Counted from the first letter of the stretch, positions 14,026-26,768 are shown. The stretch is DNA of 64,000 nucleotides from Chlamydiota bacterium (GCA_022601345.1 JAJACU010000010.1:21758-85757); one strand, 5' to 3'. Numbers and translations are program-made. The notes: generated from the letters alone by a model not told the origin.

Positions 14026-14288
14026 TTTTTACCTTATGAAAAAGCTTCAATAAAAATTAGTTTAAACAGAAAAGTCTTTTTTACAAAAAAAAACTAAATC
14101 TCATTAAGATAAAGATATAATGGTTTGTTACTGACTATGTATTATTCAAGGCTACAACCCCAATTTTAATGAAGTAAATTCATATATTTTGCCTTACTTC
14201 TACACAAGTGACGGAATGCACTTGCACTTATCCATTTTATTAAAGTATTTTGCTCTTTATGCTGAAGCAAACATGATGCATTTTGTTT

Positions 14289-17024
14289 ATGAGTTTTCTA
14301 AAATTAAAAAAATTCCCACTAATTGGAATATCTGCACTTATACTTTCTTGCAATGCATTCTCAGAGTCAGAGGAGACTCTAGCAATTAGAAGAATTGCTA
14401 CTTGCTACCATGAAAAAGACTTTGAGCTATCTGGGAAATTAATAGACCACTTCTTTGAAACATACCCCTCGTCTTGCCACCTTGAAAATTTATATCTACT
14501 GCAAGCCGACAACTACCTGCAAAAAAAAGAGTGGAAAAAAGCTCTTACAGCCTACCAACTCATCCAGAGCCCTCTTTTGAGAGACGAGTCGTTTATACAA
14601 CGGCTTCATTGCCACTACTCACTAAGGAATTTTCAAGCATTAAAAAAAGAAATTGAACCGCGCTTCAATGATTTAAGCAACTTATCAACTAGTGATCAAA
14701 ATATTGTAACCTTCTACTTTGCTGAATCTCTATTTAAAGACGATCTCAAGTCACTAAATTCAAAAGATCTTACGCGCATTCTTAAGCTTTATAACACACT
14801 TTTAAATACTTCTTTTGAAGCTTATGCAAAAGTAAGCATGGCCCATATCTACGCTCTTCAAAACAAACATAATGAAGCATCTGATCTCTTTTCACAGTCT
14901 GCAAAGGCTTTCCCTGATCAGAAAGAAAGGCTCTTATTTGCTGCTGCATCTCACCAGTCTCACTTTGATCCTAACCTTGCCACTGAAACTTTTAACCACA
15001 TTAAAGAACTTAATGCCCACACTCACCAAGAAGCTTTTTATAATTGGATGGTGCTTCTTTATCACAGTGATAATTTTGAAAAAATAATTGAGTCTAGAGA
15101 TGAACTCTTATCTCAAATCCCTGACTCTAAGATCTCCAGTACACACCTTATTTTAGGTAAAACTTTTTTCAAACAAAAGCAATATATTGCAGCTCTCAAT
15201 CATTTTGACAAATGCTTAGACGGGCATAATCCAAAAATGTTGCTTCAAGAAGTTTCTCTATTAGGTCTTCTAGCAAGCTACCAACTTAATGATTTGTATA
15301 AACTCAATTCTTATTTATCTATTTTGGAAAAGAAGTTTAGATCTTCAAAGGAATATTCAGAGGGCTTATTTTGGAAAGCAAAGTATTTTCAAAATAATAA
15401 AGAGTTCTCAAAAGCGCTGCACACCTACCACAAAGTTATCAAAACAAAATCAGAAAAATTGCTGCCTTCTTCGTCCTATCAAATAGCTTTGATCTATTAC
15501 CAACAAGACCAGTTTCAAAAAGCCCAAAGTTCATTTACAAAGCTTTTGAAAAATTTTCCAGATAGCGCCTACTCCAAACCTAGCATCTCCTACTTACTGC
15601 AGTCTTGCTTTAAGTTGCTTCACCAAAAAGAGAGTCCAAAAGTCAAACAACAACTCATTGATGCTCACCTAGCAGCATTAAACATGAAAGGATATTTTGA
15701 AAAAGATCAAGTTCCACAAGTTCATTTAAGTATTGCCAAACTATATCTCGATTTAGGCAGGCAAAAAGAATTTGAAGAGACTTTGACTACTTTTCTAAGC
15801 TTATTCCCCAAAAATGATAAAACCTATCAGGCTCACCTATTACTTGCCTATTCATCTAAGAAAAAGCAAGATGGCTTAGATAATTATTTGCAACACTTAG
15901 AGGATGCAGCTTTTGCAGCTCCTCCTTTAGAAGTTCTAAGCCCTATCTATGCCGATCTTTTTTATGGCTACTTACAAAGTGCTAAACGCATTAAATCTAT
16001 GGAGATTGTTTTTGAAAAAGTAAGTGATTGCGTCATTGAGCTCATTAACTTTGGTTATGATTTTCCAAAAAGCCTTTACCTGTGGTTTAGCCAATCATTT
16101 TTTCAAGAACTTGAGAAAAAAATTAAAGATAGCCGGGAGTTTGAAAATGCAGATTTGCTAGAGAAAGCTAGTAAAATCTTAACTTATTATATTCAAAAGT
16201 TCCCTGAAATTGAATCTGCTCATGATCAAAATATACGCTTTAATTATGCACGTGTTTTAGGCTGGCAAAGATTGTTTAAACAACAGCTCAAGAGTCTTCA
16301 GTCACTTAATAAGCAACTGAACCCCGACAGCTCCCTATATTTCAAGTCCCTTTTTGAAGAAGCTCTATGCCATCAAATATTAGATCAAAAAGACACTGCA
16401 ATTGATATTTATGAAAAAATAATCTCGAAACAAAGCTTATTTATTCAAGATGTTTCACTCAAAGCTAAGTTGAACCTGGCTCGTCTTCTAACAGTAGAGT
16501 ACCTTTCAAACAAAAACAGCACTCTACTGAATAAAATTAACGAACTCTATGAAGATCTACATGTAGCAAGATCTTTTAAAAACGAACCTCTGCATCTAGA
16601 GGCTGCACTAGATTCAAGCTTATTAAACCATTTAGATTTCCTACAAAAAAAGGATTACTCATCCTATTTAAAAGCTCTAATAAAAATTAAAGACGACTTT
16701 TCAAATAAAGACACACTACTAACTCAAGAATATCATGAAATAAGGCTTAAATCTCCTGAAGAAAATAGCTTTTATGAATCATATATGATGTTTCTTGATG
16801 CACGAATTTTAAACCTTCAAGCAAAGCTCCAGACAAACGAAAACGACTCCATGAAAAAAGAGAAAATGGCTCTAGCACAAAAAATTCTTTCGCGCCTTCA
16901 AAAAGAAAATACAACTCCATACCTCTCTAAAATAATACAAATTGAAACGCAATCCTATAAGAAAGATGTTTTTACCGACGACTTTTTTTGTGATTTTACT
17001 AAAGGGTTGAACAATGAACTATAA
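14289..17024 (+). CDS. Large exported TPR protein
   Basis: Signal peptide; many YbgF/BamD-like TPR units (FTKLLKNFPDSAYSKPSISYL). Confidence 0.85.
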   Translation: MSFLKLKKFPLIGISALILSCNAFSESEETLAIRRIATCYHEKDFELSGKLIDHFFETYPSSCHLENLYLLQADNYLQKKEWKKALTAYQLIQSPLLRDESFIQRLHCHYSLRNFQALKKEIEPRFNDLSNLSTSDQNIVTFYFAESLFKDDLKSLNSKDLTRILKLYNTLLNTSFEAYAKVSMAHIYALQNKHNEASDLFSQSAKAFPDQKERLLFAAASHQSHFDPNLATETFNHIKELNAHTHQEAFYNWMVLLYHSDNFEKIIESRDELLSQIPDSKISSTHLILGKTFFKQKQYIAALNHFDKCLDGHNPKMLLQEVSLLGLLASYQLNDLYKLNSYLSILEKKFRSSKEYSEGLFWKAKYFQNNKEFSKALHTYHKVIKTKSEKLLPSSSYQIALIYYQQDQFQKAQSSFTKLLKNFPDSAYSKPSISYLLQSCFKLLHQKESPKVKQQLIDAHLAALNMKGYFEKDQVPQVHLSIAKLYLDLGRQKEFEETLTTFLSLFPKNDKTYQAHLLLAYSSKKKQDGLDNYLQHLEDAAFAAPPLEVLSPIYADLFYGYLQSAKRIKSMEIVFEKVSDCVIELINFGYDFPKSLYLWFSQSFFQELEKKIKDSREFENADLLEKASKILTYYIQKFPEIESAHDQNIRFNYARVLGWQRLFKQQLKSLQSLNKQLNPDSSLYFKSLFEEALCHQILDQKDTAIDIYEKIISKQSLFIQDVSLKAKLNLARLLTVEYLSNKNSTLLNKINELYEDLHVARSFKNEPLHLEAALDSSLLNHLDFLQKKDYSSYLKALIKIKDDFSNKDTLLTQEYHEIRLKSPEENSFYESYMMFLDARILNLQAKLQTNENDSMKKEKMALAQKILSRLQKENTTPYLSKIIQIETQSYKKDVFTDDFFCDFTKGLNNEL

Positions 17025-18735
17025 ACCATATCAATCTAAAATACGTTGGAAGCAACTCAGCACTGTTATAACCTTGACAATAGCCTTTCATATTTACATT
17101 GTTTTTTTAATCAAAGACATTTCTTTCACATCTTACTCTCTCTCAATTCCTAAACAAAACCATTTAGCTGAAGACACTCTCGATCTTTACTCACAATCTA
17201 TAAAAAAGAAAAACCAGGACCTAGAGCATATCTTTAGCCGCTTAATTGCAAAAAGTGTATTACCTCACGATGTCAAATTTGATTTTCAAGACTTAGAGAG
17301 CGCCTCATTCCCTGAAGAGTTAACAAGTGTAAACCCACAATTTTCACCCAAAGAAAATACATATCCAAAACGAGATTCTATACTCTCATCTCAAGAGAGT
17401 TCTTTGATTGGAGAGAATAACTTACTCAATTCACTGGCTTTGCTCGAGTCTCCTCTAGAAACTACTTTCGACCCAGCAGATCAATTTTATGCCATTGAAG
17501 ATCAAGAATCTCTTGAACTTATTGACGAATCAAAAAATGTATTTCAACAAAGCTCCTTAATAGACGTTTTTGATTCGAGTTCAATGACATCTAATTTAGA
17601 ACTTAACTTTGAAATGATCGGCCTAAAAGAGCCTACTCTTCCCTCTTCTGAGAATTTCCAATCTGACATGAGTAAGGCAAATGATGAAAAAAGAATGATT
17701 GCCTCAAGCTCGGACTTCACAGTCCAAGTAGAGTACGCCCCCCAAATTGACGCTGATGGCTTTGTTTTCAAACTGTCATTGAGACCCAAGCCTCACAAAC
17801 ATTTCAAACGAATCAAACAAAATCTTTTTTTTCTAATAGATCGCTCACACTCGATCCCCATCAAACACTATTTAGCAGCAAAAGATGCGGTTTCTAACGC
17901 CCTGGATTATTTAAACTTAGAAGATAGCTTTAATATCTTAATATTTGATGATAAAGTAGCCAAACTTTCCTCAAAAAACCTAGTTTGTTCACCAAAAAAC
18001 ATTAAACTTGCAAAACAGTTTCTCAAGAATCAAAAACACGGTGGTTTTTTTGCAACAACTGATCTTTACTCATCCCTTGATAAAATTGTTCCTGATGTTG
18101 TGAAAGAAGATGAAGTAAATACAGCTATATTACTTTCTGATGGCGATACTTACCTCACTAAACAAAAACAAAGAAAGACCCTCAATTACTGGTCACAGAA
18201 AAATAAGGGCAAAGTCTCATTATTCTCTCTTGCTATTGGAAAAAATAAAAACATAAGCCTTTTAGATCTGCTAAGTATCTTTAACAAAGGATCAATGCGC
18301 GCAGCATTTTCTCCTGCTACAATTTCAAATGAATTATTAATGCTTGTACAATCACTTCACTCTCCTATTGGAAAAGATCTAACTGTAACGGGGTTGCCTC
18401 ATAATAAACTTGCCACACTAAAAGTCTATCCTGGGCAAGAGCGCCTTCCCAACCTCTATGAGAATCTAGAATATGTCCTCTATGGAACAATTGATCAAGC
18501 CTCTGACTTTACTCTTTTTTTACAAGGTCGCTACTATGACCACTGGCTTGATATAAAAAAATCTATCTCATTATCAAAAGGCACTCTTGGTGATAGTCAA
18601 TCACTCAAAAAAGGAGTTATACTTCAACAAGCTTACGGCGAATACGAGCAATATTTAAGATCAGGTCATCCAGGATTTTTAGAAAAAGCAAAAAGCCTGC
18701 TTAAGCCAGTTAACTTACCTCTAGCTTTCGAGTAA
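17014..18735 (+). CDS. von Willebrand factor A domain membrane protein
   Basis: N-terminal TM; MIDAS FLIDRSHS, then TTDLY and ILLSDGD. Confidence 0.85.
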   Translation: MNYKPYQSKIRWKQLSTVITLTIAFHIYIVFLIKDISFTSYSLSIPKQNHLAEDTLDLYSQSIKKKNQDLEHIFSRLIAKSVLPHDVKFDFQDLESASFPEELTSVNPQFSPKENTYPKRDSILSSQESSLIGENNLLNSLALLESPLETTFDPADQFYAIEDQESLELIDESKNVFQQSSLIDVFDSSSMTSNLELNFEMIGLKEPTLPSSENFQSDMSKANDEKRMIASSSDFTVQVEYAPQIDADGFVFKLSLRPKPHKHFKRIKQNLFFLIDRSHSIPIKHYLAAKDAVSNALDYLNLEDSFNILIFDDKVAKLSSKNLVCSPKNIKLAKQFLKNQKHGGFFATTDLYSSLDKIVPDVVKEDEVNTAILLSDGDTYLTKQKQRKTLNYWSQKNKGKVSLFSLAIGKNKNISLLDLLSIFNKGSMRAAFSPATISNELLMLVQSLHSPIGKDLTVTGLPHNKLATLKVYPGQERLPNLYENLEYVLYGTIDQASDFTLFLQGRYYDHWLDIKKSISLSKGTLGDSQSLKKGVILQQAYGEYEQYLRSGHPGFLEKAKSLLKPVNLPLAFE

Positions 18736-18737
18736 TT

Positions 18738-19301
18738 ATGCATATCATCGGTGGACAATTTAAAAAACAAAAACTGCAGTCTCCAAAAGGAGAACAAACA
18801 CGCCCAACTAAAAATATTTTACGAGAGACTTTTTATAATATTTGCATGCCCTACATAGAAGGTGCCATTTTTGTAGATCTTTTTGCAGGGTCAGGGGCAA
18901 TGGGTTTAGAAGCTTTAAGCCGTGGGGCAAAACATTCATACTTTATTGAAGCCCATAGAAATGCATATATTGCCATTGAAAAAAATATCCAGCACTTAAA
19001 AGTTAAGAAAAGTGCCACACTTATTAAAGGTGATGTTTTTCAAAAACTCAAATGCATTGACTCTAGGTGTGATATTATTTTTGCTGACCCACCCTATGCT
19101 AAGGAAAACCAAGCATCTTATGCTGTGAGGCTATTAGAGTTCTTAAATCGCCACTCTCTTTTGAAAGAAGGAGGGAGGCTGTATATCGAAATAGGGAGTG
19201 ATGAAAATATCGATCTTTCTAGCTATAGCTCTTTTGAATTTATAAAAAAGCGACTAATTGGCAGTTCTGCTCTTGTTGAGATGAAACAACTTGCTAATTG
19301 A
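18738..19301 (+). CDS. rsmD: 16S rRNA m2G966 methyltransferase
   Basis: MHIIGGQFK, TRPT, DLFAGSGAMGLEALSRGA, FADPPY. Confidence 0.95.
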   Translation: MHIIGGQFKKQKLQSPKGEQTRPTKNILRETFYNICMPYIEGAIFVDLFAGSGAMGLEALSRGAKHSYFIEAHRNAYIAIEKNIQHLKVKKSATLIKGDVFQKLKCIDSRCDIIFADPPYAKENQASYAVRLLEFLNRHSLLKEGGRLYIEIGSDENIDLSSYSSFEFIKKRLIGSSALVEMKQLAN

Positions 19302-20267
19302 CTCTTCAAAAATTTTGAAGAAGTTCCCCTCTTTTTGATTTTCTTTTTTATCTTCTATCACCTCGTGTGATCTTGTCTCCAAAAGCTCGTGCATTGAAGG
19401 CATTTGAAGACTAGACCGCATTCTATCTTCAGGGTTCAAGTAGTTGTTTGCACACGGTTTAATGCGCTTTAAATTATCGCTGTATGTGATTTCAAAATTC
19501 AATTTAGCCGCAAAATACTTACTGCCTTTTTGATCAAAAACCATCACACCTCTATATTTACCCACAGGAAGATCACTTACACCAATTGTGTATTTATTTT
19601 TTTGTGATGGAAAAGTCCACCTCTCATAGGGATTCTCATGCAACACCTTGATCCCCTGACTATTATAGATATCAACAGAGACTCTAGGTCTTAGGGCAAG
19701 AGAACCTTCATTTTTAATGTTTATATGATACTGAAGCTCTTTTATGGCTTTGTTGTATGTAACAGATCTATCCTCTGCTGATAGGGCATATTGACCTGTT
19801 CCTTTTATATGAACAATAGCCTGGGCTGCATATTGAATAACATATGAAATCATTTTTTTATTCTCAGAGCTATCTGCGCTTTTACTAGATGGTGACAGTA
19901 AAATGATGCAGTTGTAAGAGCCTTCAAGATTTGGATCATTTGGAATTGAAATGTTATAGTTATAAGAATAATCAGAGCGAGAAGAAATCATAACCTCACT
20001 TTTTGATAATTCAACCCAAGCAGCGCACGAGTGGGGATCTTCACCTACAATAGGGTTGTTCATGTCCGTGTGTATCTCTAAAGGAAAATCAAAACATCTA
20101 ACCTTTACCCCTTTAGGATTCTTATCTGGGTTGTGTAACTTAATGCTTCCCGTAAGGACCTCTCCAGGCTCTCCATAAAATTCAAACTGCATAGGCCCTC
20201 TAACACCAAAGTCACGAGCACATAAATTACAACTAAGTAACAGCATGAACATCAACAAATATTTCAT
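19254..20267 (-). CDS. Exported two-Ig-domain protein, pilus chaperone-like (PapD-like / DUF916-type)
   Basis: Signal peptide from the ATG at 20267; SCAAWVEL, IPNDPNLEGSYNCIILL, IKNEGSLALRP, LPVGKYRGVMVFD. Confidence 0.6.
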   Translation of the reverse strand: MKYLLMFMLLLSCNLCARDFGVRGPMQFEFYGEPGEVLTGSIKLHNPDKNPKGVKVRCFDFPLEIHTDMNNPIVGEDPHSCAAWVELSKSEVMISSRSDYSYNYNISIPNDPNLEGSYNCIILLSPSSKSADSSENKKMISYVIQYAAQAIVHIKGTGQYALSAEDRSVTYNKAIKELQYHINIKNEGSLALRPRVSVDIYNSQGIKVLHENPYERWTFPSQKNKYTIGVSDLPVGKYRGVMVFDQKGSKYFAAKLNFEITYSDNLKRIKPCANNYLNPEDRMRSSLQMPSMHELLETRSHEVIEDKKENQKEGNFFKIFEESISKLFHLNKSRTAN

Positions 20268-20491
20268 CAAAGACCCATTTAGTTTTAGACTATTCAACAA
20301 ATATATTTATATTAATTCTCATTTTTTTAAACAGATAAAAGTTATCGATAATAAAACTAAAAATTTTAAAGCTGATTTATAAGCGCTAGATTTGCTCTAT
20401 TTATCCCAATACAGCATTAAATTAAGCATACTTATTTACATAAATCTTTTTTCTTATATAAAAAGAGCATCTATATTTATAGGACAAGAGT

Positions 20492-20983
20492 GTGACTACC
20501 AATAAACTTAAGTACATCAGAAATGTTTTAGTGATGCTGTGCTTTTGCATGCAGCTACACCCCTCTACTTTCAGTGATCATATTATCACAATGAGAGTAG
20601 GTGCCGAACCTTCCAGCGTATTTACAGACCTCTCCTTAGACCAGGATGACTTTATAGGAGGAGCTACTACATATAATTATGAAAACTCCTCTTTGACATG
20701 GGAGTATTCAAATAGTGATAGTACAACCTATTCACTATCTGCAAATTTGTCAGCAACAGCAGATACTGGCTGGACCTATTCTATGACAGTTGCTGGAATA
20801 GGGACATCTGTAGGCGAAGTTTCTTGGACTTCAGCAGATACAACGACAGCAAAAACAATTGCGACAGGGCTGCCCCAAGACACTACCGTGACAGATGGAA
20901 CGCAAACATTAAAGATAGAAGTTGTCCACGCTAATTTCACTGGCGGCGATCACAACAGAACATTTGTGTTTACTTTTTCATAG
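20492..20983 (+). CDS. Secreted pilin-like beta-rich subunit
   Basis: Signal peptide, Thr-rich, ends in an alternating beta strand (RTFVFTFS); paralog of 21085..21576. Confidence 0.6.
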   Translation: MTTNKLKYIRNVLVMLCFCMQLHPSTFSDHIITMRVGAEPSSVFTDLSLDQDDFIGGATTYNYENSSLTWEYSNSDSTTYSLSANLSATADTGWTYSMTVAGIGTSVGEVSWTSADTTTAKTIATGLPQDTTVTDGTQTLKIEVVHANFTGGDHNRTFVFTFS

Positions 20984-21084
20984 ACCTCTTTTTTTCCTGA
21001 TAATCAACTTTATTTAAAAAAAAGATTTACATTAATTCGTATTTTTGAATACAGACGAAAAATATATGTAAACAGGAGGCACCT

Positions 21085-21576
21085 ATGCTTTACAACAATT
21101 TTAAATACGTATGGTTAATCGTATTAACTCAAGTATTTTTCGTTTCTTTTTGCTTTGCAGGAATAGATGATCAATTAGTAGATGTTAATATTACTGCAGG
21201 TAAATCTGTGGAATTTACAGATATTGTTCTAACTGAATTTGACTTTACAGGTGGAGTGACAACCTACGATTATTCAGACAATACTTTAACTTGGCAATAT
21301 GACAACACAGATGGTACAGCTTATGCTTTGCATGCAGGTTTAAATTCTGCAGCTGAAACAGGTTGGACCTATACCATGACTCTTGGTGGGATTGGAACAA
21401 CATCGGGTGCGGTCACTTTTAACACTGCTGATGGAACCACTGCAAAAGAAGTTGCAACAGCCCTTCCTGTCAACACTATCGTGACAAATGGAACTCAAGA
21501 CTTTGAAATAAGTGTTCTACACGCTAACTTCACTGGGGGTGTTCACAACAACACATTCTTGTTTACATTTATTTAA
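21085..21576 (+). CDS. Secreted pilin-like beta-rich subunit
   Basis: AGGAGG RBS, signal peptide; mature part roughly half identical to 20492..20983; ends NTFLFTFI. Confidence 0.65.
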   Translation: MLYNNFKYVWLIVLTQVFFVSFCFAGIDDQLVDVNITAGKSVEFTDIVLTEFDFTGGVTTYDYSDNTLTWQYDNTDGTAYALHAGLNSAAETGWTYTMTLGGIGTTSGAVTFNTADGTTAKEVATALPVNTIVTNGTQDFEISVLHANFTGGVHNNTFLFTFI

Positions 21577-24287
21577 ATGTAATCAAGCTGCCTTTTTAAC
21601 TGAAGAATTCTTAGCTTGAAGTATTTATTCTCACCTTGAACAACCTCAAAGTCTATGCGAGGTTGTTCAATTTCATAGTCATAAGATAAATTATCAACAT
21701 CTATTGAAATATTCCACTGACCTGGCCTTAAATTAGGAAAGTGAAAGTTTCCTTTCTTGTTAGGCTCAATAGAGTATTTTTCTCCAGATGCAGAAACAAG
21801 AGTTATTTGAGCTATTGCAGAATGACTTTTCAGATACTTATTAGCATTCGCTTTATCATAGTTGTAATAAGAAAGATTTCCTTCAACTGAGCACGGACGA
21901 ATAAAAACAACATCTAAATTAGTTACTTTGTTTTTGGCAACTTCCACGCGTTGCGGCATTGCTTCTTTTGTGATAAATCCTTCAGGAGTATCGTCTACAT
22001 CTAAAAGATAGGTTCCTGGCTTGAGATAATCAAAACTATAGTCCCCCTTCTTGCCCGCCTTACAATCTAATTCATTACAACTAATAATTGGATTTGCAGT
22101 AGGCCTCAAAATTCCATTTTCTTCATAATAAGTTTTACCTTTTACTTGAGTTCTATCTGCTTTTTTTCCTATAGGAAGTCCCCAGGGGATTTTAAAACTC
22201 AAGACACCTCTATAAGTAGCTTTTGCTCTAAAAGGGCGAATAATACTCCCTTTGAACTCTAAAATTTGATTATTTCTAAATCTATAGGAGAAATTCCCTT
22301 GATAAAAATTTCTAAAAACGGCGTAGCTAATTTGAGAATGTTCATATACAAATGAACTTTTAAATCGCCCTATATTTGCTGTAGCTGACGCCCCATACGT
22401 TTGATTCCATCGTATGTTGTGTATCTTATATAGATACCCCCATCTTCCATAAACAGAAAGAGTCTGACCCTTAACTCTCAAATAATTATAGGCACTATAC
22501 CTTTGCCATGTCTTTGTAAATGAATCAATTGGCTCTTGAATATACTTACCGACTTCGGCATTTCCAACAAAAGTAAAGCGTCTTAGAGATTGGGTAATTC
22601 TAAGAGAAGCAAAATTTGTTTTAAATCCAAGCCCAAAGAAATGATTTCTTGCCTCGAAGTTATTATAGGCTGTTGAGATAAAAAGCCCCATTGGAAGAGT
22701 TAAGGTAGCCTCTCCAAGCACCCTCTGTGATTTGTTTGCCGAAGAAAATAAAGGGTTATTATCTAAATTAGAATCATAGCTTGTAAACGCTCCAAAAAGA
22801 TTAAGACGCTCTTTTATTCGAAACCCTGCCGAATAACTATTCTCTGAATAGTTGTTATAATAACCTAGAAAAAGATAGGGGGCATAAACTTTTTGAAAGT
22901 TATACCAAAACCATTTAACTGGACGCCCATTACCTTGCAGGTAATATCCATCTTTGCGTGCTCGAGGAGCTCTAGAATAACTCACCCCCCACTCACCTTG
23001 AATATTTGTCCATTCTTTATAGGAGGCATTACCTGAAACAGACAGTATATTTACATCATTTTCTTGGGTATAATTAGAGTTACTCAATTTTCCATTTGCG
23101 TAATAATATGTTGTCTGGAACCCAAGCTCTTTTATTGGCATAAACCTAAAAAAAGCTCCGACATCTGTTCTAGGAACTGCTGAAGATCTTGCAACAGCCA
23201 ATGACCCTACTTGAAAATTTGGAGATTTTAGAGTTAACATCCCACCTCTTCCATATCTTGAAGTCAACGTTAGTGGGCTTAAGTGATAGACTCCATCTGC
23301 TCCATAAGCATCGATATGAGCAGAGGTGTAGTTTACAAAATATTTCTCTGGAGTTCCTCCAAACTGTTGAAAAACAGAGGTCTGCCTAATAAAGGGTATT
23401 CTAAATAAATAAGAGAACCACTTAGTTTTTTCTCGATCTACATAGCCACCTCCTTCTGTATTGATAAAAAGAGTCTTCTTCCAATTATTAAAACCCGCTA
23501 CAAATGTTGAAACAGATGGAATGAGCTGATACTTTTCTAAACCTTTAATGAAAGTTGATCTTGCGTGAAGGGGAATCGAGATGGATTTGCTCTCTAACTG
23601 CTTCAAAGAGTTAGAATCTTTGATAAAAATAGTCAAAAAGTCATAGCTATGATTGCGTTTTTCAGACTTAGTTTTAACGTTAATATTTACTTTTACTGTG
23701 CGACCTGGATCTACCTCTACTCGATTTGAAGGTTCAAAGTTTACTTTTTCTAAAAGAACTCCTTGAGCTGCCAAAGTAACGTCCCTTTTAAAGTTCCCGT
23801 TATTCGTTAAGGCTAAAGTTGCTTTATAACCTGTCCCCTCAACAACATGCTTTGTTGTTACAGTGAGCTGAGAATTTAATGAATCAACGGCTAAGACCTC
23901 TATGTTGACTTCTGCTACACCAATGAGCGTCTCATTGTCTGTTCCCTGCACTGTAAGCTTGACCACATGCCGCCCTACACGCGCATCCTTAGGCAATTTA
24001 ACCGCAATAATTTCAATCGTCTCTCCCTGACTTCCTAAATTTACAGGAGGCAAATCCATAGGGATAGTTTGCCAACCCTTAGGCAAGTCCATTCGAGTCA
24101 CAAAAGTGTCACTTTTAGAACTGTAATTTTGAATTAAAAAAGAAAGAGTAAGGACTTCATCAGGAGCCGCTTGTAGAGCTTTCGAAGTCATGGGTTGCAC
24201 ATACAGACCGTATCCTTTCCCCGAAGCTTGAATAAATGCAGTCGGTATACACAAAGCTAAGCAAAATATAATCCAAAACTTTTTCAA
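21573..24287 (-). CDS. Usher-like outer membrane protein, 904 aa
   Basis: Signal peptide, two N-terminal Ig/NEW3-like domains, ~450 aa of aromatic-rich alternating beta strands ending SFKIPWGLPI, then two carboxypeptidase-regulatory-like domains (GDYSFDYLKPGTY, GNFHFPNLRPGQW). Confidence 0.6.
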   Translation of the reverse strand: MKKFWIIFCLALCIPTAFIQASGKGYGLYVQPMTSKALQAAPDEVLTLSFLIQNYSSKSDTFVTRMDLPKGWQTIPMDLPPVNLGSQGETIEIIAVKLPKDARVGRHVVKLTVQGTDNETLIGVAEVNIEVLAVDSLNSQLTVTTKHVVEGTGYKATLALTNNGNFKRDVTLAAQGVLLEKVNFEPSNRVEVDPGRTVKVNINVKTKSEKRNHSYDFLTIFIKDSNSLKQLESKSISIPLHARSTFIKGLEKYQLIPSVSTFVAGFNNWKKTLFINTEGGGYVDREKTKWFSYLFRIPFIRQTSVFQQFGGTPEKYFVNYTSAHIDAYGADGVYHLSPLTLTSRYGRGGMLTLKSPNFQVGSLAVARSSAVPRTDVGAFFRFMPIKELGFQTTYYYANGKLSNSNYTQENDVNILSVSGNASYKEWTNIQGEWGVSYSRAPRARKDGYYLQGNGRPVKWFWYNFQKVYAPYLFLGYYNNYSENSYSAGFRIKERLNLFGAFTSYDSNLDNNPLFSSANKSQRVLGEATLTLPMGLFISTAYNNFEARNHFFGLGFKTNFASLRITQSLRRFTFVGNAEVGKYIQEPIDSFTKTWQRYSAYNYLRVKGQTLSVYGRWGYLYKIHNIRWNQTYGASATANIGRFKSSFVYEHSQISYAVFRNFYQGNFSYRFRNNQILEFKGSIIRPFRAKATYRGVLSFKIPWGLPIGKKADRTQVKGKTYYEENGILRPTANPIISCNELDCKAGKKGDYSFDYLKPGTYLLDVDDTPEGFITKEAMPQRVEVAKNKVTNLDVVFIRPCSVEGNLSYYNYDKANANKYLKSHSAIAQITLVSASGEKYSIEPNKKGNFHFPNLRPGQWNISIDVDNLSYDYEIEQPRIDFEVVQGENKYFKLRILQLKRQLDYI

Positions 24288-24290
24288 ACT

Positions 24291-24742
24291 CTATAGCTCT
24301 TTTGATTTATATAAATAGTTAATTCCATACGATGTTGGAGGAAACACTTCAGCATCAAAAGAACCTGAAAAATAATACTTTATGTAACAATCTAAGTACT
24401 GGCCTTCTTTAATGTTTGTGACAAGTTCATGCACTCTTCCATCACTGATATCTACGATCCCGTGGTTCCTTGCTCCCTTTAAAGATTCCAATTCCACCTT
24501 TAGTTTTAAATTTGAATTTAGTGGAGTCTGAAGCTGAACTGTTATTTTACCCTTGCTTTTCCTATCCACTTGTAGAGAATAACTTTGTGACTCATCTATA
24601 ACCTCTAACAATTGTGGTCTACCTTCTTGCTCAACATCATCAATGGATAGTAAAGGGACAGTGCCGTTTATTACAAAATTAGAAGCGTCTAATAATGGGA
24701 GCTTAAAAACTAAAAATAGAAGATTAAAAATAAATATCTCAT
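24291..24742 (-). CDS. Pilin-like subunit with uncertain 5' end (possible frameshift)
   Basis: Body (KITVQL...LKLKVEL...HELVTNIKEG...IKYYF) resembles neighbouring subunits. The ATG at 24742 is out of frame by one base at the A5 run 24712-24716; the track starts at TTG 24611. Confidence 0.55.
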
Positions 24743-24820
24743 AAATAAAATTTATTTTTTTTATTTTTTCTTTTATAGTAGTTTCAACTCTTAAAAAAAA
24801 GTTGTTTTATCAAATTTTAT

Positions 24821-25339
24821 ATGATTAATAAGAACTTATTTTCATTTCCGTTGTTTCTCACCACTTTTTTTCTCTTTAACGCGTCTCTACTTCATAGTGA
24901 GAGTATTTCTATCAACCAAAACATCATTCTAGAAGTTAGTAAAATTAGAGCGGTTTCCATAAATTCTTCTACAGCTAAAATTACTTTAGGAAATGAGCAT
25001 ATTTCCCCTGGAGATCCTGTTTTTGAATCTGAAAGCTATTATGAGAATACACTAGACATTACAACGCTAAGTGATAAACCCCAAAAGATTACAGCCCTTT
25101 TAAGCTCATCTCTTCCTAAAGGAATGACACTGTCTGCATGCCTTCAACCCCCTCTTAAGGGCAAAAGTTCTGGATACCAAATTTTGAATACTCAAAGACC
25201 AGTGACTCTAGTTTATGCCATCCCAAAAGCTTGTTCAGCAAAAGAACTTGTCTTATCTTACAAATTTTCCGTTGCAGATAAAACTCTTCCGCAGTCAGCA
25301 GATGCTCATGTTATTTATAAAATTGAAGATGACAATTAG
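24821..25339 (+). CDS. Secreted pilin-like subunit
   Basis: Signal peptide; QKITALLSSSLPKGMTLSACLQPP...SSGYQILNT...LSYKF...VIYKIED. Confidence 0.7.
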   Translation: MINKNLFSFPLFLTTFFLFNASLLHSESISINQNIILEVSKIRAVSINSSTAKITLGNEHISPGDPVFESESYYENTLDITTLSDKPQKITALLSSSLPKGMTLSACLQPPLKGKSSGYQILNTQRPVTLVYAIPKACSAKELVLSYKFSVADKTLPQSADAHVIYKIEDDN

Positions 25340-25839
25340 TGATCCATTAAAGTGTATCTAATAGCGCACTGCTGAATTCTAGAAGTTATTTTTTCTCGAT
25401 TTTGAATGCTATAGCTAATTGGTATACTCGATTCATTACAAAAAGCATCTATTTTATCGATAAGAACAACTGGAGATTTTTTTCCAATGGCCACAAAGCC
25501 TGAATTTTTCAGAAAAGCACTCCCTTGGCAACATACCATTAATTCAAAGTTATCAGGTGTGTTAAAATTCTTTATTTGTTCGACCAGAAGTTTTTTTTCA
25601 CGTCCATCATTACTGACAATCCCCATTTCAGCCTCTTGATCTGAACTTCCAAAAAACCTTCCCCTTTCTCTGACTAGCTCTATATGTAAATTCTGAGGGC
25701 TTATTTCTATTTTATTAACAATTTGATAGTCCAACTTCAAAATATGATCTACGGTATCCAATGAAAACACCAAAGCAGAACTAAATAACAAAGATATAAA
25801 TAATGAAAACTTCATAAACAACTTACAATTAACAAACAT
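25336..25839 (-). CDS. Secreted pilin-like subunit
   Basis: Signal peptide; DHILKLDY at the mature start; C-terminal IRYTLMDH. Confidence 0.65.
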   Translation of the reverse strand: MFVNCKLFMKFSLFISLLFSSALVFSLDTVDHILKLDYQIVNKIEISPQNLHIELVRERGRFFGSSDQEAEMGIVSNDGREKKLLVEQIKNFNTPDNFELMVCCQGSAFLKNSGFVAIGKKSPVVLIDKIDAFCNESSIPISYSIQNREKITSRIQQCAIRYTLMDH

Positions 25840-25860
25840 TAAATTGCACTTTACAATACT

Positions 25861-26361
25861 TTACTGGTCCATCAAAGTATATACTATTTTTCTTGAAAAA
25901 GATTCCACATCAAGGGCCTCTCTTCCAAAATAAAACTGATAAGTGATTACATTTGGAGTGTAAATTGTAGAATCTTTTGTTAGATTTCTTAAAATATCGC
26001 TATCTACAGTAGATAGTTTTTGCAATCCAGTCGACTTGCCCGATGGAGGTGGAGCAAAGTACACATATAATTCCATGCCCTTTGGCATTTCAGCATCAAG
26101 TTGAGCAACAACTTTTTTGACCGTATCATCTGCAATAACTATAGAAAATCCGGTAGAATCATCAGTGATCTCCGACATCTTCCCAGGCCTTATATCTGAG
26201 CTACTTAATTGAAAGTCTGGGGTAGGCCCTACCAATACAAATGCATTTTGAGCTGAAATTGTGACATTGATAATTTGAGAATTAGATGGATTATTTGAAA
26301 ACAAACTTCCTTTAGGTGCTAGCAGCAGAAAAACTACTAAAAATAATATCCTCTTACGCAT
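25861..26361 (-). CDS. Secreted pilin-like subunit
   Basis: Signal peptide MRKRILFLVVFLLL; KKVVAQLDAEMPKGMELYV...PPSGKSTG...LST...ITYQF...IVYTLMDQ. Confidence 0.7.
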   Translation of the reverse strand: MRKRILFLVVFLLLAPKGSLFSNNPSNSQIINVTISAQNAFVLVGPTPDFQLSSSDIRPGKMSEITDDSTGFSIVIADDTVKKVVAQLDAEMPKGMELYVYFAPPPSGKSTGLQKLSTVDSDILRNLTKDSTIYTPNVITYQFYFGREALDVESFSRKIVYTLMDQ

Positions 26362-26492
26362 GTGACTTGTAGAGCAAACGACGCCCCCCTCCAAGCCGGA
26401 ACCTAATTCAAAGCTTTTTTTTTGAAAAGCCCTCCCACGCAGAAACTTTAAAAAAAACCTAATAACTTAATAATAAGTAATTTGAAATTCCA

Positions 26493-26768
26493 TCAATCTT
26501 TGAATAGACGCTTTGCGATATCATCTACTGATGGTTTATTGTCTTTTATTGACTCAGAAAGAGCCTTAAATTCTTCACAATAGTTGAAATGATCCCTGTC
26601 TCTGACCTGATCCGTGTTTGGAATTTGACAGTCATTTGGCTTGCCTGGCTGATAAAACTTGCACCCTTGACAGGCATGTAAATAGGCCCCACACCCCTCA
26701 CAGACAGATTTAAAACCAATAACTTCTTCACATTTTTGATGACACTTCCAACAAAACCCTTGAAACAT
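26493..26768 (-). CDS. Small Cys-rich putative metal-binding protein
   Basis: Three CxxC motifs plus two further Cys (CQIP, NYCEEF). Confidence 0.8.
   Translation of the reverse strand: MFQGFCWKCHQKCEEVIGFKSVCEGCGAYLHACQGCKFYQPGKPNDCQIPNTDQVRDRDHFNYCEEFKALSESIKDNKPSVDDIAKRLFKD

Follow-up and report, generated by a model that had tools for sequence, protein, structure and literature searches.

A cluster of eight open reading frames (ORFs) from a member of the Chlamydiota probably encodes an undescribed, chaperone-usher-like fibre assembly pathway of double-membraned bacteria that uses a WxL-type chaperone. The cluster occupies positions 19254-26394 of a 64,000-nucleotide stretch from Chlamydiota bacterium (GCA_022601345.1 JAJACU010000010.1:21758-85757), the whole of which is called the window here and supplies all coordinates below. 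Its genes lie in mixed orientation and encode a pore-like protein of 904 amino acids (aa), D, a 348-aa protein with two immunoglobulin-like (Ig) domains, A, and six beta-rich proteins of 150-177 aa. Donor-strand pili are a textbook Gram-negative invention, assembled with PapD-type chaperones and PapC-type ushers. According to an October 2026 preprint, a second chaperone family, WxLIP/ElrE, does the same chemistry in enterococci (bioRxiv 10.64898/2026.10.17.759780). The locus and its relatives would pair a WxLIP-type chaperone, in a soluble periplasmic form, with an outer-membrane pore, a combination of which we found no description in the literature searched (subscription-only papers and supplements lay outside the search). 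The chemistry would be that of chaperone-usher pili, but the chaperone would come from the WxL lineage and the pore from a family of its own.

The first-pass annotation, made from the sequence alone, had marked a non-canonical pilus locus here, and all eight ORFs were found where it placed them, its end point of 26361 being the ATG at codon 12 of H. The genes are as follows, S1 and S2 being the two types of small subunit.

A, 19254-20300, minus strand: candidate periplasmic two-Ig chaperone, 348 aa; likely start at the ATG of codon 12.
B, 20492-20983, plus strand: small exported subunit of the second type (S2), 163 aa.
C, 21085-21576, plus strand: small exported subunit (S2), paralogue of B, 163 aa.
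D, 21573-24287, minus strand: usher-like outer-membrane protein with signal peptide, 904 aa.
E, 24291-24742, minus strand: fourth S1-type subunit; the ORF as listed, 24291-24611, encodes 106 aa.
F, 24821-25339, plus strand: S1-type subunit, 172 aa.
G, 25336-25839, minus strand: S1-type subunit, 167 aa; S1 profile E 2e-24.
H, 25861-26394, minus strand: S1-type subunit, 177 aa; likely start at the ATG at 26361 (codon 12).

Sequence comparison indicates that these are real genes rather than chance ORFs, because D has many relatives and because A and the E/F/G/H family recur beside D in other genomes. A, B, C, D, F, G and H each begin with a hydrophobic 12-mer (Kyte-Doolittle 1.8-3.1) and have no later transmembrane-like 19-mer; export was judged from N-terminal hydrophobicity alone, that is, from signal-like segments rather than predictor calls. 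Five of the six small proteins had been credited with clear signal peptides, and B, C, F, G and H are indeed signal-like, the sixth being E, whose frame is broken once near 24719 within a short T run on the coding strand. The E frame is open upstream through signal-like residues that include no ATG, GTG or TTG, and the ATG at 24742 stands in another frame. One extra base behind 24719 in a Logan contig (depth 22) of sequencing run X1, possibly the source sample, makes the frame continuous from that ATG; the region 24524-24765 is not covered by contigs of runs X2 and X3, which leaves X1 as the one run that bears on the E frame. The break is therefore probably an assembly-length difference, and we accordingly count six subunit genes in the locus.

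The chaperone assignment comes from the A family, which consists of the window copy and 23 orthologues collected from neighbouring positions in other genomes. A profile of these 24 sequences matches EfmWxLIP1 (9i25_C, 9i1y_A) at E 3.4e-8, with profile positions 39-257 aligned to chain residues 27-251, so that both domains are covered. The name WxLIP denotes the protein with DUF916 and DUF3324 that is found in WxL clusters of Gram-positive bacteria (PMC10599100). Of the corresponding Pfam models, taken at E ≤ 1, PF06030 (WxLIP_PGBD, formerly DUF916) is matched by 16 of the 24 members, the best at 3.3e-6, and PF11797 (WxLIP_HBD, formerly DUF3324) by 2. On this evidence A appears to be a distant homologue of WxLIP at superfamily level and not a member by Pfam cut-off. 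The models for PapD-like chaperones (PF00345/PF02753) are matched by a single one of the 24 members, through PapD_N at E 0.067, and not by the window copy.

Certain features of A differ from those of its Gram-positive counterparts. Among 56 A-family proteins (five of them duplicates across two locus sets), none has a transmembrane-like hydrophobic 19-mer (>1.6) beyond residue 60, whereas 96.7% of WxL chaperones are reported in the preprint to have a C-terminal membrane helix (bioRxiv 10.64898/2026.10.17.759780). Lacking a membrane anchor, A has the appearance that a free periplasmic chaperone would have. Its C-terminus is a hydrophilic tail of about 70 residues; longer hydrophilic tails occur in only 4 of the 23 orthologues (loci L052, L009, L045 and L060).

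A structural model is consistent with a chaperone role. Residues 29-280 of A were modelled with residues 33-177 of H, each with its own alignment, in three runs and with three controls. The interface score ipSAE was 0.72, 0.77 and 0.75 (median 0.75) for A with H and 0.00 for all three controls. In calibration, the mark set for this score is passed by 58 of the 80 solved complexes and by 2 of the 110 mismatched pairs, counts that apply here only roughly because own alignments were used. At least 91% of contacts agreed among the runs, and the partner pLDDT was 80. In the model, A strand 148-158 (KKMISYVIQYA) runs parallel to the last strand of H (165-177), the closest pairs (A152-H169, A154-H171, A156-H173 and A158-H175) giving a parallel register, and A155 touches H52 on the first strand. 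The A strand would therefore fill a gap between the first and last strands of H, which is the classic chaperone topology and implies that the H fold is incomplete at that place, as the first-pass annotation had expected of its subunits. Residues 33-46 of H lie outside the interface. The model thus supports chaperone-subunit binding without demonstrating it.

The position of this strand also appears to correspond to that used in the Gram-positive system. In the alignment of the A-family profile with EfmWxLIP1, A 148-158 is matched to the segment that precedes the conserved R-x-x-Y motif, a segment that we take to be the WxLIP hairpin described in two sources as the donated strand (PMC10599100; bioRxiv 10.64898/2026.10.17.759780). 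The same preprint reports that ElrE complements the WxL pilin ElrD by a strand parallel to the pilin's last strand, a role that was shown experimentally, and that ElrD polymerises through an N-terminal donor strand. The present locus resembles the Elr/WxL pilus of Enterococcus faecalis and the WxL-WxLIP (Csc) clusters of Bacillota in that A is homologous to WxLIP/ElrE over both domains, the donated strand belongs to the homologous hairpin and in the model runs alongside the last subunit strand in parallel orientation, the small subunits have an alternating N-terminal strand left free by the chaperone, and there are several paralogous subunit genes per locus. It differs in more than the missing membrane helix of A: no sortase or LPxTG-type protein is encoded in this locus, the WxL model of Pfam does not recognise the subunits, and an outer-membrane barrel protein of about 900 aa with a fused chaperone-like module is added. 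Its hosts belong to double-membraned phyla, whereas the WxL/Elr system, which is usher-less, is reported in the preprint to be confined to Bacillota, in 48 of 4,698 genera (bioRxiv 10.64898/2026.10.17.759780).

The small proteins fall into two groups. F, G and H are paralogues by BLASTP (F vs H, E 2e-11; F vs G, E 2.5e-7), and the S1 profile scores F at E 1e-33 and the 106-aa ORF of E at E 2e-23, placing E in the same family. B and C, which are 48% identical, were found only in the window genome among 41 searched; aligned with the S1 profile by hhalign (prob 93.2, E 2.9e-7, 146 columns), they appear to be distant relatives of S1. Domain libraries were of little help: scans of the window proteins with Pfam and NCBIfam gave nothing usable for A, B, C or E-H, and 72 S1 members together matched 25 Pfam families at E ≤ 1, none by more than one member. 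The WxL model PF13731 had no match in the genome, with a positive Lactococcus control, and the S1 profile had none among Protein Data Bank (PDB) sequences at E ≤ 10. A word-index search with the S1 profile returned 7 proteins, none carrying a Pfam domain and one having the same sequence as H (100% identity); this type of search was too insensitive for the lineage and likewise yielded a single relative of D.

The AlphaFold2 model of H (pLDDT 89.1) is a seven-strand sandwich (51-176) with a pilin-like fold and a C-terminal strand at 165-177, and its mature N-terminus (33-50) is unstructured in the monomer. When this fold was compared with 48,161 chains, the first 12 rows were all fibre subunits, which we take to be donor-strand assembled: nine were chaperone-usher pilins, and the others were TLP-1b, the Hyper2 tube and cannulae. 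Class-5 chaperone-usher pilins were nearest, and the matches were middling. No WxL-domain structure appeared in the fold lists for H, from a library that may hold none. In the ESM Atlas, H was nearest to unnamed clusters, mostly from Bacteroidota (0.96), and the nearest named cluster was a WxL-domain one (0.91), which is rated as a lead only and is the sole hint of WxL kinship in the subunits. Across the 72 sequences, the last strand of H is close to 100% hydrophobic at positions 170, 172 and 174, and an alternating strand at 38-46, in the N-terminal stretch outside the fold, is hydrophobic at positions 38, 42, 44 and 46 in 78, 97, 86 and 91% of sequences, with mostly Thr or Ser in between.

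D was modelled with AlphaFold2 from 105 sequences (pLDDT 88.1, pTM 0.73). The model has two N-terminal Ig domains (28-131 and 137-239), a core barrel of about 24-26 strands (~253-708, a span over which the model has 26 strands in succession) and two C-terminal sandwich domains of transthyretin-like type (712-896), which bears out the order of Ig domains, barrel core and two C-terminal beta-sandwiches read earlier from the sequence. Pfam recognises the two C-terminal domains as CarboxypepD_reg/transthyretin-like (E 1.1e-10), with SpaA-type matches, and finds weak NEW3/FixG_C-type Ig matches N-terminally; an NCBIfam scan gave nothing useful, and a search of PDB sequences with D alone gave no match at E ≤ 1. 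A HMMER pass over 1.84 billion representatives collected 2147 relatives at E ≤ 1e-3 and 434 at E ≤ 1e-30, and ten relatives that were checked carried the source name 'hypothetical protein' or none.

D is usher-like in architecture, yet it is not a member of the PapC/FimD family, because the Usher model PF00577 finds nothing in the genome: there was no match in the whole genome at E ≤ 0.01 or among the Pfam matches of D at E ≤ 1, and an E. coli control was positive. The first-pass annotation had recognised no classical PapC or FimA motifs, in agreement with this result and with the single PapD_N match in the A family. In a Foldseek search with D, FimD took ranks 1-6 and 8-9, PapC rank 10 and a streptococcal protease rank 7. 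The best barrel matches were MtrB and TonB-dependent receptors, which align better than ushers do. The best of them, the MtrB barrel, has 26 strands, and the barrel of D is probably 26-stranded rather than 24-stranded.

These matches bring in two alternatives. D and A might be genuine homologues of PapC/FimD and PapD whose sequences have diverged too far to be recognised, and such very divergent classical machinery would account for the eight FimD and one PapC in the Foldseek top ten, for the shared order of a barrel followed by two C-terminal sandwiches, for the likeness of the subunit to class-5 pilins and for the one A-family member that touches PapD_N. It fits poorly with the silence of PF00577 in a genome scan whose control was positive, with the better alignment of other barrels and the missing insert of about 80 residues for a plug, and with an N-terminus of D that is a two-Ig chaperone paralogue and not an usher N-terminal domain. 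The homology of A to WxLIP is a further difficulty, as that family is reported in the preprint to be disjoint from PapD-like chaperones (bioRxiv 10.64898/2026.10.17.759780), and we consider this the least probable of the explanations weighed. Alternatively, the locus may encode an outer-membrane uptake or conduit complex, with D as a TonB-dependent/SusC-type transporter or an MtrB-type sheath and the small proteins acting as binders of ligands or as inserted partners. Such a role is favoured by the MtrB and TonB-dependent receptor matches and by the presence of CarboxypepD_reg domains on transporters of SusC type as well. The likeness of D to MtrB, LptD and TonB-dependent receptors is, however, that of barrels in general: the flanking domains differ, neither Pfam nor NCBIfam yielded a plug or TonB-box family, and the locus holds no cytochromes as partners. 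Its partner A is homologous to a donor-strand chaperone and was modelled in that mode, and the small proteins are pilin-like. A transporter or conduit thus also fits the data poorly and is very improbable.

The N-terminus of D relates the pore to the chaperone by homology. Aligned by hhalign, the A and D families match with prob 95.8 and E 6.6e-9, A 25-252 against D 28-222, and the two-Ig module of D therefore appears to be a paralogue of A; this independent comparison was relied on because E-values of the A profile against D proteins from iterated profile searching are inflated by fed-back matches. The module retains an alternating strand at the position aligned with A. At the other end, a Pfam scan of 34 of the 105 D sequences found a C-terminal SPOR domain in 3 (P0090, P0101 and P0125). 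SPOR domains bind peptidoglycan, which suggests that the C-terminal end of these D-family pores is tied to the cell wall. Given these fusions in relatives, the C-terminus of D, and with an even strand count also its N-terminus, would lie in the periplasm.

A model of the pathway is proposed on this basis. All eight proteins would be exported by the Sec system, as their N-termini indicate. Soluble A would hold each small subunit in the periplasm (E, F, G, H and probably B and C), donating strand 148-158 into the gap between first and last subunit strands, parallel to the last, from a position homologous to the donor hairpin of WxLIP/ElrE. D would form the 24-26-strand pore in the outer membrane, its N-terminal Ig pair probably receiving or holding chaperone-subunit complexes there and its C-terminal transthyretin-like domains lying in the periplasm like the C-terminal domains of ushers. 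In polymerisation, the chaperone strand would be exchanged for the conserved amphipathic N-terminal strand of the next subunit, as conservation and analogy suggest, and the fibre would presumably leave through the barrel of D. Such a fibre might serve in adhesion, to a host or to another surface, or contribute to a matrix.

The main rival to this model is display without a long fibre, in which A is a holdase, D a pore or anchor, and the small proteins are exported as surface monomers or short oligomers, for instance capped on the N-terminal domains of D. Chaperone-subunit binding is the sole contact modelled, which such a module needs equally; D carries a chaperone-like module of its own with the alternating strand kept at the aligned position, many loci in both sets described below have only one or two subunit genes, and the fold matches of H are middling. 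What a display module does not readily explain is the N-terminal amphipathic strand of the subunits, which is conserved yet lies outside both the fold and the chaperone interface and is hard to account for without strand exchange. The homologous Gram-positive system, moreover, polymerises, according to the preprint (bioRxiv 10.64898/2026.10.17.759780). We therefore consider display alone unlikely, though a good deal less so than the transporter or eroded-usher explanations, and retain the fibre assembly pathway as the preferred reading.

The genes recur together well beyond the window. The D sequence by itself finds matches in 6 of 41 related genomes, and a D profile in 34 of 401 genomes of the phylum at E ≤ 1e-10; the profile finds nothing in 30 genomes of a family with genomes of about 1.1 Mb or in 7 further genomes from the family to which the window genome belongs. 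A set of 24 Chlamydiota loci was selected by the presence of D. Of these, 23 also contain A, which in 18 cases is the immediate same-strand neighbour of D, and 22 contain S1 genes, in up to ten copies. The exception for A is L062, a locus with a barrel-only, 591-aa D-like gene. Shorter D-like genes of this kind, with frames of about 530-660 aa that cover the barrel part only (profile ~123-710), were seen in one chlamydial family (L062, that is G101:C1, and L037-L042), and around L062, the only one of these loci inspected, both A and S1 are missing; these shorter genes may be a barrel-only offshoot with another role.

A degenerate DNA scan of 185,579 species' genomes for the motif Y-x-L-[ST]-P-L-T-x3-R-[YF]-G-R-G extended the range further. 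Of the 47 loci obtained, 9 are contigs already in the 24-locus set. All 47 have a D homologue (E ≤ 5e-72), 40 have A (adjacent on the same strand in 38) and 36 have S1, most misses being cut off by the end of the locus. By record label, 11 loci belong to Bacteroidota (including the isolates Maribellus sediminis and Maribellus sp. YY47), 8 to Chlamydiota, 7 to Zixibacteria, 4 to Verrucomicrobiota and 3 to Betaproteobacteria, with 5 unlabelled; KSB1, Planctomycetota, Ignavibacteria, Chlorobiota, Armatimonadota, Nitrococcus, a deltaproteobacterium, an unclassified proteobacterium and a 'Clostridia' label account for one each. The system is thus not special to Chlamydiota. None of the three outcomes that the first-pass annotation had named as contrary to it was seen: D models as a barrel, the subunit fold is incomplete in the model of the A-H complex, and the genes co-occur in both the 24 and the 47 loci. 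Its proposal of a divergent fimbrial assembly system is supported, and it is refined here by the WxLIP-type chaperone.

Comparison of flanks indicates that the locus is old and dispensable, since genome G018 has a homologous locus between the same flanking genes as the window, while in G001, of the same genus, and G004, of the same family, the flanks are kept and a few hundred bases stand in place of the locus.

Several observations weigh against the proposed pathway. The TM-scores of D to ushers in Foldseek are low (0.21-0.33), and neither a plug domain nor a plug insert of about 80 residues in the strand list of the model was identified in D. The window copy of A reaches no Pfam WxLIP model, a scan of the genome with these models giving nothing at E ≤ 1, so that the link to WxLIP stands at the level of the family profile; similarly, the WxL model PF13731 is not among the 25 families matched by the 72 S1 members. 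The pass of the A-H complex could partly reflect memory of solved chaperone-pilin complexes, and polymerisation is argued from a sequence pattern and from analogy. As for distribution, two Betaproteobacteria-labelled loci (L074 and L088) have D without A where it is expected, and the absence of the locus from same-genus and same-family genomes shows it to be dispensable.

The locus could represent a third, ancient chaperone-usher lineage spread across many double-membraned phyla, with a chaperone of common descent with WxLIP/ElrE and an 'usher' that is a copy of this chaperone fused to a 26-strand barrel, a possibility to which we give a little less than an even chance. WxL pili would then not be an invention of Bacillota: they would descend from an outer-membrane system as its wall-anchored remnant, or else have been its precursor. 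The fused chaperone module of D would hold the base subunit and anchor the fibre.

The pathway can be set apart from other pili on several grounds. Unlike classical, alternate (class 5: CFA/I, CS1 and CS17) and archaic (Csu) chaperone-usher pili, it shows no match to the Usher, PapD_N or fimbrial Pfam families at the level of a family assignment, and its pore has a chaperone paralogue at the N-terminus, no recognised plug domain and a barrel of probably 26 rather than 24 strands; by model, it shares with the classical pili an incomplete subunit fold filled by a chaperone strand parallel to the last strand. The Pam pilus of CPR bacteria, as described in a preprint (bioRxiv 10.64898/2026.03.03.709456), is similar in having Ig-like pilins joined by donor strands and two-domain chaperone-like proteins in the operon. 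In contrast to the present system, the Pam chaperones are anchored in the membrane, the pathway has no pore and its monoderm hosts lack an outer membrane; Pam pilins are reported there as exclusive to CPR bacteria.

With this pairing, the evolutionary relation between the strand-exchange pili of Gram-positive and Gram-negative bacteria would become open to direct test. The pairing also offers a likely role for a large set of 'hypothetical' genes and a candidate surface fibre for environmental chlamydiae. Experiments are feasible because, going by record labels, some carriers are in culture, Maribellus sediminis among them.

Certain relatives of the locus contain additional genes. In a Chlamydiae-labelled metagenome-assembled genome with a D homologue, an 800-aa protein (L101:5206-7608, minus strand) matches the S1 profile at E 1e-42 and could be a large subunit of tip-adhesin type, like the 'large WxL' proteins; nothing comparable is present in the window. 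Directly upstream of the homologous locus in G018 (L009:1219-8622) are genes that, from their translations alone, read like a type II secretion set, with a secretin-like protein of 789 aa, an ATPase-like protein of 555 aa, a polytopic protein of 397 aa and two small pseudopilin-like proteins. Among the subunit genes of G018 (L009:13215-14117), a 300-aa protein with a long Lys/Asp/Glu-rich repeat of KDKED type has no counterpart in the window.

In the window itself, the locus is flanked by an rsmD-like gene (18738-19301, plus strand) on one side and by a gene for a MORN-repeat protein (26770-29298, minus strand) on the other. The 3' end of A as listed overlaps that of the convergent rsmD-like gene by 48 bases (19254-19301), and on the side where G018 has its secretion-like genes the window encodes a TPR protein and a vWA-like protein (14283-18735). 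A 91-aa Cys-rich ORF (26493-26768, minus strand) lies directly downstream of H, before the MORN-repeat gene. No RNA run is among the sequencing runs listed as holding the locus; window positions 19200-26450 are nearly identical in contigs of three DNA runs from one study, all labelled sponge metagenome, one of which may be the source sample.

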